From NCBI GenBank assembly GCA_050246315.1, contig JBFWWG010000002.1:32001-96000 (forward strand): a DNA stretch of 64,000 nt, given 5' to 3'. This stretch comes from Nitrospiraceae bacterium. GTDB taxonomy: Bacteria > Nitrospirota > Nitrospiria > Nitrospirales > Nitrospiraceae. Shown here piece after piece: positions 22,604 through 60,084 of the stretch (position 1 is the first letter of the stretch; each line of letters begins with the position of its first letter). The notes under the pieces were generated by a model, which ran no database searches, was not told the DNA's origin, and saw only the letters and a list, made by a program, of their open reading frames with translations. A program made the translations under genes and the position numbers.

Positions 22604-25600
22604 ATGGCACACACAACCGAATCTCGACACTCGAATCGGCTCCTCAACGAAACCAGTCCGTATCTGTTGCAGCATGCCCACAATCCTGTGGATTGGTATC
22701 CTTGGGGACCGGAAGCCCTGGAACGGGCGAAGCGGCTCGACCTCCCGATCCTGCTCTCCATCGGCTATTCTTCCTGCCACTGGTGCCATGTCATGGAGCG
22801 GGAGTCATTCGAAAACGACGAGATCGCCGGGCTCATGAATGAGCACTTTGTCTGCGTCAAAGTCGATCGCGAGGAGCGGCCGGATCTTGACGAAATTTAC
22901 ATGCAGGCCACGGTGGCCATGAATCAGGGTCAGGGCGGTTGGCCGATGACGGTGTTCCTGACACCGGAGCAACAGCCCTTCTTTGCCGGAACGTATTTCC
23001 CCCCAACCGACCGATGGGGACGGCCGGGCTTCGGCACGTTACTGAAGAAGATCGCGGAGTTTTGGGAGAGAGATCGCCAGGGTCTACGGGAACAGGCCGG
23101 ACATCTGACCGATCGGCTCAAGCAGGAAATCCAACTCTCAGCTCCGGCTTCGATTGGCGATTCGGAGTTTGACACCGCCGTGCATCAATATGAAGAGGAA
23201 TTCGACGCGCGATACGGCGGATTCGGCGGTGCGCCGAAGTTTCCTCCGGCCACCGGCCTGTCGTTTCTGCTCCGGCAGTTCCGGCGAACCGGGAACCGGA
23301 AGATCCTCGACATGGTCCGCCGCACCCTGGATGGCATGGCCGCGGGGGGCATCTACGACCATATCGGCGGAGGGTTTGCGCGGTATTCCACGGATGCCGC
23401 TTGGCTGGTGCCGCACTTCGAGAAGATGCTGTATGACAATGCCTTGCTGGCCAAGGTCTACGTGGAGGGCTATCAGGTCTTGAGAGAGGCGCGATACCGC
23501 CGTGTGGCGACCGAAACACTGGACTATATCCTTCGAGAGATGGCCGGACCGGAAGGCGGTTACTATTCCGCAACAGACGCCGATTCCGAAGGGATCGAAG
23601 GCAAGTTTTTTGTCTGGACGCCCGAGGAGATCCGGGCGACGGTCGGTGACGAGGAGGACGCCAAGCGCTTCTGTGCCTATTATGACATCTCAGAAAAGGG
23701 GAACTGGACCGAGCCGGCCGGGCATGACGCATTGCAAGGAGTCAGGAACATCCCGCATACGCCTAGGTCGATCGAGGAGGTCGCACGGGATTGCGGAATC
23801 GCGGTTCACGAGCTCCAGGACAGCCTCGATCGGTCGCGTCGCCTCCTCTATGAGGCCAGACGGAAACGCGTTCCGCCCGGATTGGACGACAAGATCATCG
23901 TGGCCTGGAACGGTCTGATGATCAGCGCCATGGCGGAAGGGGCTCGGGTGCTCGGAGAGGAACGATATCTCAACGCAGCCGTCAGGACTGCGGACTTTCT
24001 GCTCGCGACCATGCGGAAGGCGGACGGCCGGCTTTTCCGCACCTATCGACTCGGTCGTCCACAACATGGAGCCTGCCTGGAGGATTATGCCTGCCTGGCG
24101 GAGGGGCTGATCGATCTCTATGAAGCTGGCGCGCCGGAGCTCTATCTCCGGGCGGCAGCCGGACTGACGGAACGGATCGTGGAAGAATTTCGTGACGAGG
24201 AACGGGGTGGGTTCTTTACCACAGGACAGAGACACGAGACACTGCTGCTGCGCAGCCGAGAGGGGCCGGACGGCGCCACCCCGAGTGCCAACGCGGTGGC
24301 GGCCTCTGTTCTGGCGCGGTTGTCCTTTCACTATGGCCGGGACGAATGGCGCGGGTTGGCGACCCGCGCCATTCGTGCGTATGGGCGCGCCATCGGCCGG
24401 TACCCTCGCGCCTTTGCCAAGAGTCTGATCGTCGCAGAGTTCTTGCTGGAGGGGCCGATCGAACTGGCACTGATCGGCCAATCCCACGAACCGAGTTTTG
24501 AGGCGCTTCGTTCAGCGATGAACCGTCCGTATCTGCCTCATCGCATCATTGCCCACGGCCATCCTTCGCACGAACCGGTCGAACACCCCCTGTTGTCTGG
24601 CAAATCCCTGGTCGATCATCGGGCGGCGCTGTACATTTGTCGCAATTTCACGTGTCAGGCTCCGCTGACTGATCCGGCTTCGGTTGAATCGGCCTTGAGC
24701 GACGGATCATCCACGGCAACGGACTCGCGGGCGGGTCGTTCTCTTTCCGGTTCGAGACTGACGGGATACGCCACCCCCGGAGGAACGGCTGGCTATGCAG
24801 CGCGGAAACTCGGGGCGGACCCGTCTCTCTCCGGCCACGCCTATACGTCATTCGGCGCCACCGGGCTCACGACCAGCCGACTGGGCTTCGGTTGCTATCG
24901 AGTGGATACCAGTGATCCGGAGTTCGGCGTCGCCCTGGCGCTGGCGCTGCGGAAGGGCTGCAACCTGATCGACACCTCGACCAACTACGCCGACGGCGAC
25001 AGCGAGCGACTGGTCGGCCTGACATTGGCCGAGCTTCAGCGCAAGGGTGAGATCAGGCGAGATGAGATTATCGTGGTGACGAAGCTCGGCTATGTCCAGG
25101 GTCAGAATCTTAAGCAGGCCCAGGAACGTGAGCGGATGGGGCGGCCCTATCCCGAGATGGTGAAGTACGGCGACGACATCTGGCACTGCCTCCATCCCGA
25201 ATTTCTGGCAGACCAATTGACCTCCTCATTGGATCGAATGGATCTTTCGACGGTCGATGTCTGCCTGCTGCACAATCCGGAGTATTTCCTGTTGGATGCG
25301 CAGCACCATGGCCGGGCGCTTGAAGAGACGCGTCGAGAATTCGACCGCCGCCTCGGCCAAGCCTTTCGATATCTGGAAGACCAGGTCAGGGATGGTCGCA
25401 TCCGACATTACGGCGTGTCCTCTAACACAGTCATCGGTGCGGCCGACAGTCCTGAGGCAACCTCATTGTCCCGTATGCTGGAGATCGCAGCTACCGCAGC
25501 CCGTGAGGCGGGACAGGCCGCTGGTCATTTTCGGGTGTTGCAATGTCCATTGAATTTATTCGAATCCGGGTCCGTCCTGCTCCCCAATACCGGGCATGGT

Positions 25601-26323
25601 GGCGAGCAGACGGCCTTGAATTATGCAGAGGCCGCGGGCGTCGCCGTGTTGGCGAATCGGCCGCTCAATGCCATGCCGAATCGCCCGGAATCTCGCGGCG
25701 GCATCGTACGGTTGGCGGACGTGCCGCTCGAATCTGAGTCGATCGATTTCGCCGGCCAGCGAGACGCCGTCGCTGCGCTGGAAGCCATCTATCAGCGGGA
25801 GGTGGCTCCACATGTGCCTCATGCCGGACAGGGCTTGGATCCAAAAGAATACTTTACATGGTCGACGGAATTGGCGAAGATTCGACCACATCTGGATGGG
25901 TTGGAGCATTGGGAGCAGGTCGAGCACCAGATGGTTGCGCCGCACTTGAATCAGGTTGTGCGTGCGCTCAATCAGGTCCTCGTTGGAGAGCGGGCCGAAC
26001 CGTGGGAGGCATGGAGGGATCGTTATCTGCCCGAATTGTTGCGCCTACTCAGAAGCCTCAAAGGAGAAGCCGCCACACGGAGTCGACTTCGGACCGATCT
26101 CATTGCCGCGGCTATCAACCCTCTCCTGCCACCATCTATGGTTCAGGCTCCGCTATCACAGAAAGCTCTGAGGGTGGTCATGAGTACACCGGGCGTGACC
26201 GCCGTCCTGAATGGGATGCGCACCAAGGCCTATGTCGAAGACTCATTCGCGACGCTCCGGGGGACGCTGCTCCCTCAGGTTACCTCCATCTATGAAGCAG
26301 CCAGCCGAATCGAATTACCGTGA
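22604..26323 (+). CDS. DUF255/YyaL thioredoxin-(alpha/alpha)6 protein fused to a C-terminal aldo/keto reductase
   Basis: [46 protein letters not shown]; then LGFGCYR, IDTSTNY, TKLGY, LLHNPE, YGVSSN. Confidence 0.9.
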
Positions 26324-26358
26324 CCTGGATATCATGACGCCCTCATCTGTATGGGGCA

Positions 26359-26664
26359 CTCCGGCGCTGGCATATACGAGACCACGAAGAGGAGCCGCCG
26401 GTTCTAGCAAAGCTTGGTATGGAATAGGTGGAGACAAGAACCTATAAGGAGTCTCTCCGGCGCCGTCATATACGAAACAGCGAAGACGAGGCGCCGGTTC
26501 AACCGAAGGTTGGTATAGAGGGGCTTCGCCCGAGGAGCCGCCGGTTCTAGCAAAGCTTGGTATGGAAAAGAAAGAGAAGAATCACTGGCGGGGTTTCTCC
26601 GGCGGCGTCAAGGAAGATGGGCTTCGCCCGAGGAGCCGCCGGTTCTAGCAAAGCTTGGTATGGA
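26359..26664 (+). repeat. Tandem array of a structured ~65-nt repeat (3 full units plus one 3' half)
   Basis: The 35-mer gaggagccgccggttctagcaaagcttggtatgga is identical at 26389, 26532 and 26630, with a variant at ~26486-26519; three units begin ctccggcg, which pairs with cgccgg. Confidence 0.9.
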
Positions 26665-26670
26665 GGGCCG

Positions 26671-27249
26671 ATGAAGACCGTTCGTTCGCACCGGTGGCTT
26701 CTGCTCTACGGCCTGTCGGTACTGGTCATGGGCGTTGGCTGTGCAACGAGATCCGGCTCCGGCTCCGGATCCGGACAGGAGAGGGGCGGTGAACCTGCGG
26801 CCGTAGAGCAGGAGGTCATGAATGCGGAACAAGTCGCTGAGCCTGCCCTGAAAGACGTGCCGTTTGAGTCAGCGCAAAAGGCCGTGCCCCTCCCGCCCGA
26901 ACCCGCAGAACCGGCCACCGCCTATCTGCTGGATGTGCCCTTCGATTTCGACCGCTACGTTCTGCGCATGGATGCCGTGGCGATCGTGGAGACCAACGCC
27001 AAGAATTTGAGCAAAGATACCGTCTCTCAAATCGTGCTGGAAGGCCGGGCAGATGAAATCGGAACTGCGGCCTACAATATGGTGCTGGGCGAACGGCGGG
27101 CTAAGACGGTGAAGCGCTATCTGGAGGATCTTGGCTTCTCATCCTCCATCCTCTCCATTGTGACCTACGGCAAGGACCGTCCCCTCTGTTTCGAGCATAA
27201 CCCCGAGTGCTGGCAGAAGAACCGCAGTGTGCGCTTCACGGTCAGATAG
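26671..27249 (+). CDS. Pal/OmpA-family peptidoglycan-associated lipoprotein
   Basis: Lipobox GVGC; FDFDRY, LEGRADEIGTAAYNMVLGERRA, YGKDRP.C, KNR; start at ATG 26671. Confidence 0.88.
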   Translation: MKTVRSHRWLLLYGLSVLVMGVGCATRSGSGSGSGQERGGEPAAVEQEVMNAEQVAEPALKDVPFESAQKAVPLPPEPAEPATAYLLDVPFDFDRYVLRMDAVAIVETNAKNLSKDTVSQIVLEGRADEIGTAAYNMVLGERRAKTVKRYLEDLGFSSSILSIVTYGKDRPLCFEHNPECWQKNRSVRFTVR

Positions 27250-28558: not shown

Positions 28559-29004
28559 CTCGAACTCTCGTGCTACCGGCCAGACCAAGTCGAGGGACCT
28601 GATCGAGCTTTGGCAGGAGGTTGAAAACGTCCGCCAGTTTGGTCGGAGCCGCCATGAGCGGTCCTTTCTTGATGCAACGGGTGTGACGCGAGGAGGCTCA
28701 CTCCTGAAGGAGTATCTCCAACGGTCTATGATAACCGAATGAGGGGAATCGCGCGTAGGGTGTTTCTCTGTCGGCGCAGTGACGAAAAGTCGTAATCCGC
28801 TGGCGGTTCAAGCGAAGCTTTGGATGCACCTCTTCGTCTCTTGACTCGCCGCGGCCACAGCCGAGAAAAGGCGCACCTCGGCGCACCGGGGTTGGACGGG
28901 TGAGAATGCCTGCCTTGTTCACTATTCTGCGGGAGGTTCTGAGATAGTCCGTGAATGCCGGCACAGCGAAGGAGCACGGGTGCTCGAACGGTTTTCGCCC
29001 CCCG

Positions 29005-45807: not shown

Positions 45808-46437
45808 TTACTTGAGTGTCTTCTCCGTCCACCAGTCTGGAAAGGCTGCCCGCACCTCGCCTGAACGATAAAGTTGGTTCGCCAGTTCGAGTGCTGCCAA
45901 ACCCGGGGCGGTCTTGATGACGACCATATTCCCGCCGATTGGAAGCTTCGCCAGCACCTCCGCCTGATGCCGAGTCGCCCAGGCTTGAACCTCCTCTTGA
46001 GACCAGGTCGGATCGAGATCGACGATCACATTTCCGGGAAGCAGGCGCATGGGACTCTCCGGTGACGGGGCATCGCGGAACACCGGTGAGAATTTTCCCC
46101 TTCCGCCGCCGGCGCCGAGTTCCTTGACCAACCGATCAGGAGCGACTCCCTTCTCGACCGTCCAGAGCCGGATACCACGGGGACTTTGAGGGAGGACAGC
46201 GCCGAGCGGCAAAGTCGTCTCTGAAGTCGAACCAGGAGTCAAATCCGCCACTTGCTCCGAGTCGAGCCAGACTCGTCGTTCGCTCGTACCATCGTGCCAG
46301 ACAAAGGAAGTACCCCAGCGGTCTCTTGCCGGCTCCTGGGAATGGGCTTGCGGGGGGTAGGCCATCTGTTCGAATCCGGCATAGCTGACGATCGCGGTCA
46401 ATCCCAGAACCAACAATGGTGCGGTATGTCTAGCCAC
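45808..46437 (-). CDS. Exported protein resembling a stand-alone subtilase prodomain/chaperone
   Basis: Signal peptide; C-terminal PGNVIVDL...ALELANQLYRSGEVRAAFPDW resembles I9-like prodomains; same strand as and downstream of the S8 gene. Confidence 0.6.
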   Translation of the reverse strand: MARHTAPLLVLGLTAIVSYAGFEQMAYPPQAHSQEPARDRWGTSFVWHDGTSERRVWLDSEQVADLTPGSTSETTLPLGAVLPQSPRGIRLWTVEKGVAPDRLVKELGAGGGRGKFSPVFRDAPSPESPMRLLPGNVIVDLDPTWSQEEVQAWATRHQAEVLAKLPIGGNMVVIKTAPGLAALELANQLYRSGEVRAAFPDWWTEKTLK

Positions 46438-48270: not shown

Positions 48271-48421
48271 TGCGTCATGTCGGAGCGGATTTGAGGATCG
48301 ATCCCCGGAACTTCGAAACAAGGTTCGTAGATGGATCGGAGTGAGTGCCGAACGTTACCAATCGGTCAGCCTCAAATCATCTATACGAAAGTGCTAGGAT
48401 CGAGCGGTTCGCTCGCACCCC

Positions 48422-48662
48422 TAGCCCGCATTATTCACGATGACTGCTACTGCAACCGCCCATACGCCGCTGCGACAAGCCTGCGTGCGGAGTTTCGGCA
48501 CGCAAGCGGCGGGCTCACCTGCCTGTGCCGGGCACGGCAGACAGGCCGCTTGGCCGGTCAACAGACAGTTAAGATCTGCCCTCTTTTCTCGCGGCTCCAC
48601 GCGCCCGCTTCGCAGCGCGACTCCAGAATTTCGCAATGAACCGTCATGACTCATGCGGGCCA
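48422..48662. mobile_element. MITE-like element 1
   Basis: Left end tagcccgcattattcacga; right end is a 15/19 inverted match; first 44 nt are 39/44 identical to the element at 55177; no transposase. Confidence 0.65.
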
Positions 48663-52088: not shown

Positions 52089-52577
52089 ATGGCCAAGAGG
52101 CGAGCATGGGCATGGGTTCGAAGGCAGCGAGGGATGACCGGCTGGATCGGCCGTACGGCCGGGTTCACGTTCATCGAGATCATGGTGGTCGTGGCGATTC
52201 TGGCCATTCTCGCGGCGCTCGTCGTGCCGCGAATCATGGGGAGGACCGATGAGGCCAAGCGCACGGCGGCGAAAGTTCAGATCCGCAACATCGAGGCCGC
52301 GCTCCAGCTCTACAAGCTCGACAACGGGGTGTATCCCTCGACCGAGCAGAATCTCAGGGCCCTGGTGGAAAGACCGAGTACGGGGGTCGTTCCAAAAAAG
52401 TGGAAGCTCGGCGGCTATCTGCAAAAGGTGCCGGAAGATCCCTGGGGCAACCCGTACAAATACATCAGCCCTAGCACGCGAGGTGATTACGAAATCATCT
52501 CCCTCGGCATCGATGGCGAGGTCGGAGGCGAAGGACCCAATGCCGACATCACCAATTGGAATCTGGACAAGGACTAG
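52089..52577 (+). CDS. gspG: Major pseudopilin
   Basis: GFTFIEIMVV; ALQLYKLDNG.YP, DPWGNPY, SLG.DG..GGEG...DI.NW. Confidence 0.96.
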   Translation: MAKRRAWAWVRRQRGMTGWIGRTAGFTFIEIMVVVAILAILAALVVPRIMGRTDEAKRTAAKVQIRNIEAALQLYKLDNGVYPSTEQNLRALVERPSTGVVPKKWKLGGYLQKVPEDPWGNPYKYISPSTRGDYEIISLGIDGEVGGEGPNADITNWNLDKD

Positions 52578-52585
52578 CCGGCATC

Positions 52586-53218
52586 ATGAGCCGATATGGA
52601 CATGTTCCTTCGGCGATACTCTCGCTTCCGAAGAGAGATGGGGAAGCCGTGCGTGAAGGAGGGTTCACCCTCTTTGAAATCATGCTGGTACTCGGCTTTC
52701 TTGGACTACTCCTCACGATTGTGATCCCGCGCATTGGTTTGCTGCAGGATGCCAGGACGGCTAGCCGCACGCTAATCGGACTGATTTATGCGTTGAAGGG
52801 CCACGCCGTTTCCTCGCAGCAAGTGTGGCGACTCCATCTGGATTTGGATCAGGGGCAGTACTGGGTCACGGCGATATTCGACGATGGAGAACGCATTCCA
52901 CTCGATCCGAGATACGAGAAGCGATTCGAACTGCCTGTCGGCGTCAAGTTCGAACGGGCGGTGACGGTGTTTCAAGGGAGGCGGGAAACCGGTATGGTCT
53001 ACCTTCAGATCTTTCCGAACGGATACCCGGAAGCGGCCATTATCTCCCTGCGTGATCAGGACGCCAATCGGAATCTGGTTGCGCTCCATGTCAACAATCT
53101 GACCGGCCAAATTCGCGTCAGCGATGTCGACGTGGATCTCGCCCCGCTCCCTCCTCTCCCCGAATACGTCCGTCCCCTGCTGTTCCCTGAGATCTACGGA
53201 GGCAACCTCAGCGTCTAG
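52586..53218 (+). CDS. gspH: Minor pseudopilin H
   Basis: GFTLFEIMLVL prepilin motif; position after gspG. Confidence 0.8.
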   Translation: MSRYGHVPSAILSLPKRDGEAVREGGFTLFEIMLVLGFLGLLLTIVIPRIGLLQDARTASRTLIGLIYALKGHAVSSQQVWRLHLDLDQGQYWVTAIFDDGERIPLDPRYEKRFELPVGVKFERAVTVFQGRRETGMVYLQIFPNGYPEAAIISLRDQDANRNLVALHVNNLTGQIRVSDVDVDLAPLPPLPEYVRPLLFPEIYGGNLSV

Positions 53219-53220
53219 CC

Positions 53221-53679
53221 ATGCACCACTTTGGCCCTCAGTCTAGCATCTTGTTTCGAAAATGGGACGATGCTCGCGGGTTCACCCTGATGGAAGTCAT
53301 GCTGGCCATGACGCTCTTGGCGATTGTCCTGCCGGTCTTGCTGGGCCTGCGCAATCGCGACCTGGACCTTCGGGAACGGGCGAGGGAAATCACCACCGCG
53401 ACCTTTTTGGCTCAGGAGAAACTATTGGAGACCGAGTTGCTGCCGGTTCTGCCGACAGGTGAACAGAGTGGAGATTTCAAGGACGCAGCGCCGGGGCTTT
53501 CCTTTCGCGGGACTAGCGAAGATCGGGCTCCTGGCTATCGCTGGAAACGCTCGATCATGCCCACGCCGTTGGAAAAGATCCAGGAGGTGCGTATCGAAGT
53601 GCTCTGGAATCATGGATTGAACGAAGAGTCCGTTGAGTTGAGTCACTATGTCTTTCAGACGAGCGGCGGATCGACCTAA
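53221..53679 (+). CDS. gspI: Minor pseudopilin I
   Basis: GFTLMEVMLAM; A..LAQEKL; YRWKR; gene order. Confidence 0.8.
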   Translation: MHHFGPQSSILFRKWDDARGFTLMEVMLAMTLLAIVLPVLLGLRNRDLDLRERAREITTATFLAQEKLLETELLPVLPTGEQSGDFKDAAPGLSFRGTSEDRAPGYRWKRSIMPTPLEKIQEVRIEVLWNHGLNEESVELSHYVFQTSGGST

Positions 53680-54277
53680 GCACGACGAACACGGGTTCAC
53701 CCTGATTGAGGTGATCCTGGGCGTGGCTATCCTCGCGGTGGCAGCCGTCTTCATCCTCGGATCGTTGACGGCGACAACCGACGTGATCGAACGTGTCCGG
53801 GAGGATAGCGCGCAGGAGCAAATGGTTCGGAGTTGTCTGTCCCTGCTGACCCAGGATCTGATGTTGAGCCGCAACGCTATCACCCAGCCGTGGATTGGAC
53901 AAAACCTCATTGGCGAAGGCGGATACCCGGCGGATACCTTGGCCTTCGTGACCGGCAATCACCAGAGCCAACAGCGGGATCGGCCCGAGGCCGATGCGGC
54001 GCGAGTGGTCTATGCAAAGGTCGGCCGCAAGCTGGTTCGATTCGTTCGACCCAACATTTATACCCTGAGTGAAGAAGGAGTCAGGCAAACGGATGTGGCC
54101 GATCATGTGGCCGGGTTCAATATCCGATATTATGACAGACAGTCGCGTGTCTGGATTGAACAGTGGGACGGGCGGTCGCGCAAGACCTTGCCGCAGGGAT
54201 TTATGATTGAACTCACCTTACAACGCGAAGACGAGCCTCCGAGAACTTTTACGTCATGGCTAACGCTGCCGAGTTAG
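53648..54277 (+). CDS. gspJ: Minor pseudopilin J
   Basis: GFTLIEVILG; LTQDL; W...W...LP C-terminal pattern; gene order. Confidence 0.82.
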   Translation: MSFRRAADRPKHDEHGFTLIEVILGVAILAVAAVFILGSLTATTDVIERVREDSAQEQMVRSCLSLLTQDLMLSRNAITQPWIGQNLIGEGGYPADTLAFVTGNHQSQQRDRPEADAARVVYAKVGRKLVRFVRPNIYTLSEEGVRQTDVADHVAGFNIRYYDRQSRVWIEQWDGRSRKTLPQGFMIELTLQREDEPPRTFTSWLTLPS

Positions 54278-55176: not shown

Positions 55177-55511
55177 TCACCCGCATGATTCACGATGACT
55201 TCTACTGCAACCGCCATGCGACCCGTTGCCGTCCAGGAGCACCGGATACGCCGGGGGGGCGAGCCAGGACAGTCGAAGGTGATTCTCCGGCGGCGACAAT
55301 GAAGAGGGGCTTCGCCCGACGAGCCGCCGGTTCACACGAAGTGTGGTATAGCGGGCAGGCTCGCCCCTCGCGGGGTCAACATACCGTTTCAAGTATGCTT
55401 CGCCGCCTCGGGGCTCCGTGCGGGGGTAGCCATTGCTCTTTTCCATGCAATGGGTCCGACGCTTGGCGTCTTGGCGGTTTCGTCACGAATTCTCGTGAAT
55501 AATGCGGGCTA
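55177..55511. mobile_element. MITE-like element 2, inserted between gspN and gspL
   Basis: Left end tcacccgcatgattcacga; right end tcgtgaataatgcgggcta (55493-55511) is the exact reverse complement of 48422-48440; carries one structured-repeat unit. Confidence 0.7.
55285..55351 (+). repeat. Dispersed copy of the structured ~65-nt repeat
   Basis: ctccggcggc...gggcttcgccc..gagccgccggttc-acac-gaa-gtgt-ggtatag; same architecture as 26597-26664. Confidence 0.85.
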
Positions 55512-59104: not shown

Positions 59105-59301
59105 TTTCTCGAGTCTTGCGCAGAAACACTTGTCGAGAATCCGGCTCTGCCGTAAGCCGTTGCAATTGTCATTGAAAGGTCAGCGCCCCGGCATTGCAGG
59201 GGCGTATCACCGCGGACAATCAGCACCCGGATTGCCTTGACAGCTTGGAGAGCGGCTGATATAGGAACACGCAAACGGCAGCTATGGCTGAAAGGTCAGG
59301 C

Positions 59302-59377
59302 GCTGGCGTAGCTCAATCGGCAGAGCAGCGGTTTTGTAAACCGCCGGTTGGAGGTTCGATTCCTCTCGCCAGCTCCA
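59302..59377 (+). tRNA. tRNA-Thr (anticodon TGT)
   Basis: Acceptor stem gctggcg/cgccagc, D-arm agctcaatcggcagagc, anticodon arm gcggt-tttgtaa-accgc, GGTTCGATTCC T-loop, encoded CCA. Confidence 0.97.
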
Positions 59378-59437
59378 TACCACACTCCGTGTGAGCCGCC
59401 GGCTCTTCAACGCCTTACCGTAATCGACGCCGGCGGA
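59374..59437 (-). repeat. Inverted copy of the structured repeat overlapping the tRNA 3' end
   Basis: Minus strand reads tccgccggc...gagccggcggctc-acac-gga-gtgt-ggtatgga; a degenerate second copy lies at ~59543-59585. Confidence 0.75.
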
Positions 59438-60084
59438 TAAATCCCTCCGGTAGATGCGACTTCGATTGCCTGACCCGACCCGGAGCCTTTACGATTGTTC
59501 CAGGCGACGGGATAAACACCTCAAGCGAACCCTTACTGCAATCCACACTTCGTGTGAGCCACCTCTTCGTTGCGATGATGGCGCCTATCCAGCGGACAAT
59601 GAATATGGCTTGATAAAAGTATGAATAATACCTTTGGCCAACATCGTTGAAGAGGCGCACAAATCCCTATTCAAGAAGGAGTACCTTTACTACCACCCTG
59701 CTACCGGAAGCGGCCAAACGACGCCGATCCATCGTGACGATGGCTTCTCAAAATCCTCGATGTGTTGAGACGACAAATCTTGCTGGATCAGGTCAGGTGG
59801 GTATCTTCTGGACCTATCAACCGCTGTTCGCTAACTCTATAACCTCAGATCGCGGGCCTGTGGTGATGGACGAAACCAAACACCTCATTCACATCGACAA
59901 TCGCGCCATCTCTCTCCGTATCGCACCTCTCTTGCGCGCGGCACGGCCGTCAAGCCGAATGGACGGTACCTAACAGGGCAGACGACGCCGCTGGCCTTGT
60001 TCCTAACGGAGGCCAAACTATTCAGGAATTGTCTGGAAGGGACTGTCGATCACACTGGGATCGTAACCGACCACGGTTGGTCGG

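Follow-up and report, generated by a model that had tools for sequence, protein, structure and literature searches.

Copies of a short, structured repeat are dispersed over a 64,000-nt stretch of a Nitrospiraceae genome (the window; positions without a contig label are those of this whole stretch), and they belong to a family that recurs in the source genome (G000, 4.39 Mb) and in the genomes of relatives (the other G-numbers below). The most telling feature of the repeat, absent from a first-pass annotation of the window, is the base precision of its 3′ junctions at the CCA ends of tRNA and transfer-messenger RNA (tmRNA) genes or at TGGAGG Shine-Dalgarno (SD) sites. The folded structure is conserved, each class of junction has its own orientation, single sites are filled in one genome and empty in another, and array content turns over rapidly. 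We put at roughly 60% the probability that the repeat is a mobile element of Nitrospiraceae alone, non-autonomous and specific in both site and orientation. Nitrospira play a key part in nitrite oxidation in soils and wastewater plants, and in each genome the repeat fills about a third of the tRNA gene ends and the SDs of about two dozen unrelated genes. Units placed 4 nt before ribosome-binding sites and right after CCA ends may affect translation and tRNA maturation, and since the arrays vary between close species they are potential strain markers.

Unit structure, covariation and range

The consensus unit (alignment A1) reads ATCAC-TGGAGG-TG-TTTCT-[CCGGCGGC]-gtCAATGAAGAG-[GGGC-TTC-GCCC]-GATGA-[GCCGCCGG]-TTC-[AACC-GAA-GGTT]-GGTA and contains three helices, P1 of 8 bp, P2 of 4 bp and P3 of 4 bp. 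The length of about 65 nt first assigned to it is too short, as the conserved part begins near ATCACTGGAGG and covers about 80 nt, or about 97 nt with its purine-rich linker. This linker, of about 17-18 nt, precedes each unit and accounts for the array period of about 97 nt.

Across 40 G000 copies, P1, P2 and P3 are paired in 93.7% of cells, while slid controls pair in only 22-46%. Cells changed on both sides number 50 against 16.3 after shuffling, a count reached in none of 500 shuffles, which confirms the covariation of P1 and of the small hairpin (P3) that had been noticed among the window copies. Among 28 copies from other genera 93.5% of cells pair and 13 of the 16 pairs have changed on both sides (0 of 500 shuffles), in an alignment that was fitted to the model and is thus biased toward the structure. 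With compensatory changes both within the genome and across genera, the earlier view that structure rather than sequence is kept holds. Among 98 copies, P1 is found in seven versions that are fully complementary, and P3 in three main ones.

In the same 98 copies the P3 loop is GAA in 68, AAA in 12, GTA in 5, CAA in 4, GGA in 2 and another triplet in 7, in keeping with its description as mostly GNA. For P2 the usual loops are TTC, TGC and TAC, which correspond to GAA, GCA and GTA on the opposite strand. Since the P3 loop is mostly GAA on the plus strand and the P2 loop mostly GNA on the minus strand, each strand carries one C-GNA-G hairpin, a type of triloop that is extra stable in DNA.

The pairing itself is symmetric between the strands. 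Over the 16 pairs of 98 copies there are 41 G·T and 56 A·C mismatches, as is the expectation for DNA-level recognition, and not the strand-specific pairing expected of a cis-regulatory RNA. The identical three helices form on either strand with DNA or RNA parameters, and the fold energies of single units span z -0.5 to -3.1 on either strand, so folding picks no strand. Folded as RNA, the whole array has an unremarkable energy (z -0.34). Two further interactions were considered and rejected. An additional 5′ helix, P0 (CTGGAG/CTCCGG), which would exclude P1, is paired in 76.6% of cells against 76.0% after shuffling; and for a kissing contact between the loops of P2 (UUC) and P3 (GAA), alignment A1, judged by eye, shows no loop covariation.

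Further copies were found by a genome scan. In G000, nhmmer returns 172 hits at E up to 1, and the 130 at E<1e-3 lie in 85 loci, 81 of them wholly outside called genes and 4 within a called open reading frame (ORF), by gene calls that are ORF-based, crude and over-extended at their starts. A covariance model matches 96 places in G000 and, with the best 101 candidates scored, 89-98 in each of three congeners; elsewhere in the family it matches 56-59 places in G007, 26 in G016, 19 in G004, 9 in G010 and 1-6 in ten more genomes. Overall, the repeat is present in 18 of 24 other Nitrospiraceae genomes. No copy was found in the remaining six, five of which are fragmented into 310-860 contigs, nor in three sister families, represented by 16 genomes. 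When one genome from each of 185,579 species was scanned for an exact pattern, 55 loci were returned, 50 of which are titled Nitrospira, Nitrospiraceae or Nitrospirae; the five outside this group were taken as chance, three scoring 17.6-19.9 bits without P3 and two lacking a model match.

At the gathering threshold only tRNA matches among the Rfam families in the window, and at E up to 10 the region 26200-26800 gives chance-level matches only, ribozymes included, all at or below 16.9 bits; this agrees with the first-pass annotation, which could assign the element to no known family. A full-text literature search found no description of the repeat. A 2025 paper on a survey tool names a Nitrospira genome in its count table (PMC12306157), and in that paper and in a survey of HUH enzymes (PMC6006769) Nitrospira or Nitrospirales appears in a table or figure legend.

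Junction classes and occupancy of sites

Units end in GGTA, and the sequence beyond falls into four classes. In the SD class, 22 arrays continue from GGTA directly into TGGAGG, with an ATG 3-10 nt on, and 4-5 further arrays are near variants; all are sense to the gene. In the tRNA class, GGTA is followed by TGG and the rest of the reverse complement of a tRNA or tmRNA gene; 13 of the 85 arrays abut such a gene, all antisense. Seen from the genes, 13 of the 47 tRNA and tmRNA genes run from CCA straight into TACC and the unit, and three more show variant junctions. The CCA is encoded in all of the 47 except a doubtful tRNA-Gln called by ARAGORN in the window. The remaining two classes lead into other repeat modules, the B class as T(G/A)GCGGGCGGGCTCGCC... 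at about 20 loci and the C class as TGTACC...GCTGCGGCC at about 12.

The two gene-associated targets share a short pattern. The reverse complement of C72-N73-CCA is TGG-N-G, and TGGAGG matches the same pattern. C-N-CCA (TGG-N-G) fits most A-type junctions, with one base ambiguous; the C-type junctions (TGTACC) and one TGCACC site deviate. Among SDs, 22 of 149 of the TGGAGG type are occupied, versus 0 of 608 in which another base precedes GGAGG. Duplication of a TGGAGG target was considered and rejected, since the conserved CTGGAGG near the 5′ end of the unit is unchanged, by eye, at tRNA targets.

The genes downstream of the 22 SD-class arrays belong to unrelated Pfam families (GYD, CDGSH, OEP, LemA, UDP-glucose dehydrogenase, flagellar rod, glutathione peroxidase, response regulator with PAS, LeuA, L25, mechanosensitive channel, PepSY, OmpA, PD40, bifunctional nuclease and Band 7), and five of them have no Pfam family at all. 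Because these families are unrelated, a ligand-sensing or regulon-specific leader is unlikely. A cis-regulatory leader would hold a constant sense place in the 5′ untranslated region (UTR) of related genes; here only 22-26 of the 85 arrays precede a start codon. The same classes recur in another genus, where the 30 best copies of G007 comprise 13 of the SD, 5 of the tRNA, 4 of the B and 3 of the C class, some of them at genes whose sites are empty in G000.

Comparison of orthologous loci gives filled and empty versions of several sites. At clpX, G007 has a unit and G000 has none; the spacer between SD and ATG is homologous, and GGTA followed by TGGAGGCGGCATG in the former corresponds to ACCA-GGAGGCCGCATG in the latter. 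Another site is filled in G017 and empty in G000, with the flank TGCA(C/G)CT common to both. The tRNA-Thr site of the window is filled in G000, holds a decayed unit in G001 and is empty in G003, where CCA is followed by TCACTCAC. At the L25 gene, G000 and G003 are filled, G016, G007 and G004 have no unit and G001 may retain a remnant, and at flgC and leuA a unit is present in three species of the genus and absent from G016. The leuA leader (G000 C7:153210-153420, minus strand; orthologs L191, L192 and L193) contains GGGTGGTACCACGG, a hairpin and a T run, which we take to resemble a T-box element from the motif GGGTGGTACCACGG; in all three congeneric species the unit lies between the apparent T-box terminator and the SD. 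At the tmRNA gene (G000 C1:202545-202846; loci L056, L058 and L075), the repeat lies 3′ of the gene in at least four genera, with three complementary versions of P1, a variety due either to compensatory change at an occupied site or to re-insertion on several occasions.

Wherever several units form an array among the 85 loci, they share one orientation, head to tail. The window array has four units versus two in G002, and its extra 143 nt are bounded by a 36-nt direct repeat, which makes a deletion in G002 possible. The arrays of G001 and G003 have three units, the last of which resembles window unit 2 and abuts the SD; window unit 2 is the counterpart of the gene-proximal unit in these genomes, and in G000 further units separate it from the SD. 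Most half units are the 3′ portions of host units into which another unit has been nested at an internal target-like site (...CAA followed by TGAAGAGGGGC). Between G000 and G002, array content differs despite flanks that are about 95% identical, and G000 contains a recent tandem duplication.

The other differences between these two genomes are changes in unit number between direct repeats. A 250-nt difference at C4:221561-221809 was considered as an insertion and is better read as a deletion within a larger composite, with 8-9 nt of microhomology. Just 5′ of C-type units in three genera, a recurrent motif (CAGGATGTTGAAAAAGGC...GCTTTGTT) occurs at G000 C4:221530-221560, at about 1440-1500 of L077 (G017) and at about 1345-1400 of L053 (G007); its appearance suggests the left-hand portion of a bigger composite.

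A probable mobile element and its alternatives

As a mobile element, the repeat would be recognised in its folded, three-helix form by an enzyme supplied in trans, which would always insert it the same way round at a short G-rich site, bringing GGTA (or GGTAT) immediately 5′ of (T)GG-N-G. This target would be found, along with tolerance for the insert, at two kinds of site, namely the reverse-complemented 3′ end of a tRNA or tmRNA gene and the GGAGG of an SD. With the target left intact every time, each new unit would be inserted beside it, between it and the previous unit, and the resulting head-to-tail arrays would be youngest at the target. Unequal recombination and decay would later reshape the arrays, and sub-families B and C would be copies that had landed in other repeats and are now spreading with them. 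We infer active transposition, a single-strand or cruciform substrate and exact cut sites. If the repeat is mobile, it selects, to the base, two types of "safe" landing site with only a short G-rich motif in common, and it does so without a recognisable transposase, which would point to a new joining enzyme.

Several observations weigh against this interpretation. About a third of tRNA ends are filled, compared with less than 1% of other intergenic TGGNG sites, of which G000 has about 8775. Because tRNA ends are filled so much more often, the motif of 4-5 nt is insufficient for site choice, and a further determinant, or survivorship beside essential features, must be assumed. At all seven unit-free orthologous SD sites the base before GGAG is not T (it is A at five), so the T after GGTA may belong to the element, or the exchange may extend further into the site. 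Several genera have units at the same tRNA and tmRNA sites, which could reflect a host function. The unit shows no terminal inverted repeats, no target duplication and no defined 5′ boundary, and no autonomous copy (5′ part, ORF, 3′ part) was found in G000. Between the two closest genomes, G000 and G002, there is no clean single-unit insertion difference, and the differences observed can also stem from recombination between repeats. Growth of arrays at the target is supported by 34 multi-unit arrays, of which 26 have their best family-model match in the target-proximal unit (13.8 expected, binomial p 2e-5), but this test is biased, as the model contains the TGGAGG flank and gives proximal units a few extra bits. 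Finally, candidate enzymes and copies do not coincide: G007, 95% complete and with 59 copies, has no Y1_Tnp, RVT_1, IS110 or IS607 match, and G019 and G020 carry 5-6 Y1_Tnp matches and zero copies.

The search for a moving enzyme in G000 gave eight matches to Y1_Tnp (PF01797), four of them in open frames of 307-328 amino acids. None of the eight loci has a copy within 1.5 kb on either side (best nhmmer E 0.19), and across 41 genomes the presence of Y1_Tnp does not follow that of the repeat; G008, G014, G015, G018, G021, G023 and G024 have copies and no Y1 match. Nor does the distribution of RVT_1 or IS110 over the genomes match that of the repeat, and the IS607 model NF033518 is above cut-off in 0 of 25 genomes, with no match in G000-G002 or G007. 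Orientation has no clear link to GC skew (plus to minus 20:11 where G exceeds C, 23:23 where C exceeds G). The connection to HUH enzymes (REP/RAYT, IS200/IS605) raised in the first-pass annotation failed in these tests, and the arrays run head to tail instead of in inverted pairs. A tentative, somewhat doubtful proposal is that the mover is an enzyme new to transposition, perhaps a common Nitrospiraceae protein, that recognises the folded DNA with its three helices and joins it, in a single orientation, at GG-N-G by tRNA and tmRNA CCA ends and at SD GGAGG sequences. If true, site-specific insertion of a new kind would be at work, with polar arrays built up at safe sites; a bolder extension would be that the copies in tRNA trailers and the complementary copies in 5′ UTRs form a sense/antisense RNA network.

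Comparison with known systems brings out partial likenesses. REP, BIME and REPIN sequences with RAYT, typically at hundreds of copies per genome in Escherichia coli and Pseudomonas, are likewise short, structured, intergenic and multi-copy, with a hairpin kept by compensatory change and a conserved tetranucleotide adjoining it. In the present repeat GGTA (TACC on the opposite strand) adjoins the P3 hairpin, but the unit has three helices, is 80-97 nt long, forms head-to-tail arrays and has precise tRNA-CCA and SD junctions, and no RAYT gene is flanked by the repeat or co-occurs with it. IS200/IS605 elements, whose folded single-strand ends are recognised, and PATEs share with it subterminal hairpins, strict asymmetry and the lack of inverted ends and target duplication, and IS200/IS605 elements also insert directly 3′ of a short motif on one strand. 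Unlike these, the repeat has no tracking TnpA and no clear replication-strand bias, its hairpin lies only 4 nt from the junction, and its site preference far exceeds a motif of 4-5 nt. Integron cassette arrays resemble it in their serial, orientation-specific insertion and in being polar and newest at the site, and attC resembles it as a substrate that is a folded, imperfect palindrome of about 60-140 nt. However, the repeat has many targets rather than one attI, its cassettes contain no genes, and no GTTRRRY R/L core sites are visible by eye. Rickettsia palindromic elements, Correia/NEMIS and ERIC are also small, gene-less and folded, with lineage-restricted bursts, and some repeats of these types are co-transcribed and affect neighbouring genes; they differ by their inverted ends, target duplications or both, and lack a fixed junction with tRNA CCA ends or SDs.

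The arrangement could instead serve the host as an RNA module, which we regard as unlikely. The unit would then be a 5′ UTR cassette (for SD exposure, as a ribosome landing pad with additional SD-like motifs or for mRNA stability) and, beside tRNA and tmRNA genes, an antisense structured 3′ trailer, and complementary trailer and UTR copies could pair in trans. Such a role would suit the 22-26 sense arrays that lie 3-10 nt before start codons with the SD unpaired, the presence in each unit of CTGGAGGTG, complement of the 16S rRNA end CACCTCC, the purine-rich linkers with GGAG, and the position of the leuA unit in a transcribed leader past the apparent T-box terminator. In addition, RNA-library contigs from three studies span the window array and link it to the genes on both sides. 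Between them they cover the upstream gene with part of unit 1 (to 26418), units 1-3 (26395-26550), units 3-4 (26492-26659), and unit 4 with the downstream gene (26634-27199); these are assembled contigs that break within repeats, carry no information on strand, ends or level and may include DNA carry-over. The structure kept across genera, the tRNA and tmRNA sites filled alike in several of them, and the 59 copies of G007 alongside none of the four tested mobile-element enzyme families are also what a host function would predict. Against it, the downstream genes have no functional theme, G·U pairs are not in excess over A·C as expected for a strand-specific RNA, and the P0 helix, which would make a switch, has no covariation support. 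Single copies are dispensable, with tRNA-Thr empty in G003 and decayed in G001 and L25 unoccupied in 4 of 6 genomes, and array content turns over far faster than the flanks. Moreover, about 30 loci hitch-hike in other repeats, and 21 arrays are antisense to both neighbours.

Recognition at the DNA level by a known type of enzyme is the substance of another reading, in which the repeat is of REP/REPIN type or derived from IS200/IS605 (PATE-like), and a Y1 HUH transposase (RAYT or TnpA) whose gene lies at another place in the genome cuts and joins it in single-stranded form. The asymmetric, hairpin-rich unit without inverted ends or target duplication, the GGTA (TACC) beside the hairpin, the insertion on the opposite strand 3′ of a short C-N-CCA motif as in IS200/IS605, the extra-stable C-GNA-G triloop on each strand and the eight PF01797 matches in G000, four in open frames, would all agree with it. 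We nevertheless hold it to be quite unlikely, given that none of the eight Y1 loci has a copy within 1.5 kb, that the Y1 profile and the repeat do not coincide (56-59 copies and 0 Y1 in G007, the reverse in G019 and G020), that there is no clear link to GC skew, and that the arrays run head to tail rather than as inverted doublets. Very improbable, in our judgement, is a DNA structural element kept by the host (a cruciform, a protein-binding site like those of gyrase, IHF or Pol I at REP/BIME, or an insulator) and spread by recombination or duplication only. Structure is equal on both strands, 81 of the 85 loci lie outside called genes, many within operon-like runs, and recombination between repeats does alter unit number, all of which would fit; however, recombination alone leaves unexplained the new sites at unrelated genes in different genera with the same precise junction and orientation. 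In and beside the window copies there is also no promoter- or terminator-like pattern (0 sites in 25900-27000 and in 59200-59900), and we know of no binding protein for the repeat, which counts further against such an element.

Copies in the window and neighbouring features

All eight copies listed in the first-pass annotation are real. Model R1, built on 40 copies located elsewhere in G000, recovers seven places in the window, and nhmmer adds a 3′ half copy. Repeat-finding groups the window copies as families D1 and D2, and the copies of the array cluster with 55278-55356.

The array itself (26335-26670) consists of four head-to-tail copies between the stop of a 1239-amino-acid ORF (26323) and the start of an OmpA-family gene (26671), all on the plus strand. 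Unit 1 (26335-26429; R1 40.0 bits, E 1.3e-8) begins 12 nt past the stop of the 1239-amino-acid ORF (22604-26323) and is present in the G002 ortholog too. Unit 2 (26431-26525; R1 64.2 bits) has the P1 strands CCGGCGCC/GGCGCCGG and the P3 hairpin AACC-GAA-GGTT. It is followed by the half unit (26517-26566; nhmmer E 8e-11, model positions 29-78), which comprises P2, the 3′ strand of P1 and P3 and is fused directly to the GGTA of unit 2. This type of junction, GGTA followed by T(A/G)GAGGGGC, is seen again in nested copies. Unit 4 (26573-26670; R1 106.9 bits, E 3.5e-26) is the best-preserved copy, and its P1, P2 and P3 fold on both strands. Its GGTA at 26657-26660 abuts, by sequence, the target (26661-26673, plus strand), which consists of the TGGAGG SD at 26661-26666 and the ATG at 26671-26673. 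The downstream OmpA-family gene occupies 26671-27249 on the plus strand (Pfam OmpA E 3.5e-14).

Beyond the array, a diverged full unit lies at 28742-28834 on the plus strand (R1 32.9 bits, E 9.4e-7) and is followed by a C-type module (TGCACCTCTTCG...GCCGCGGCC); what had been listed at 28805-28826 as possibly the small hairpin only is in fact the P3 hairpin of this unit. A tRNA-Thr(TGT) gene with encoded CCA (59302-59377, plus strand; ARAGORN; Rfam tRNA 69.7 bits) is the target of an inverted unit (59368-59462, minus strand; R1 61.3 bits). The inverted copy begins at 59378, immediately past the CCA, and the tRNA strand runs from CCA into TACC-ACAC-TCC-GTGT.... A degenerate copy follows at 59531-59607 on the minus strand (R1 15.2 bits, E 0.042).

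The remaining copy, at 55261-55358 on the plus strand (R1 106.9 bits), is a B-type unit with the P3 hairpin ACAC-GAA-GTGT, followed by TAGCGGGCAGGCTCGCC. It lies inside a miniature inverted-repeat transposable element (MITE) of about 330 bp, unstranded, at 55180-55509, which is delimited in the sequence by terminal inverted repeats (CCCGCATGATTCACGA ... TCGTGAATAATGCGGG; repeats I1 and D7). In G002 the MITE occurs without a unit (locus L104) at a site that is empty in G000 (C2:524775), with CTA on both sides. B copies have probably spread as passengers. The unit itself has neither the terminal inverted repeats nor the target duplication of a classical MITE, and only the B type lies within a MITE bearing such repeats. 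A solo MITE end is found at 48419-48468, the terminal inverted repeats of the MITE family contain CCCGCATTATTCACGA, and one of its sub-families has the structured unit within it.

Two other features of the window were observed. The tRNA-Gln called by ARAGORN at 46212-46306 on the minus strand is 95 nt long and has no encoded CCA, and Rfam tRNA is silent there at the gathering threshold; the call may be false, or the sequence may be an unusual one of tRNA-like form. At 52150-53737, the direct-repeat families D3 and D4 resemble repeated 5′ ends of neighbouring genes coding for G-F-T-L-(I/M)-E-V-M, which we take to resemble the leader motifs of type IV pilins or pseudopilins, and D3 and D4 are probably paralogous genes rather than a non-coding repeat.

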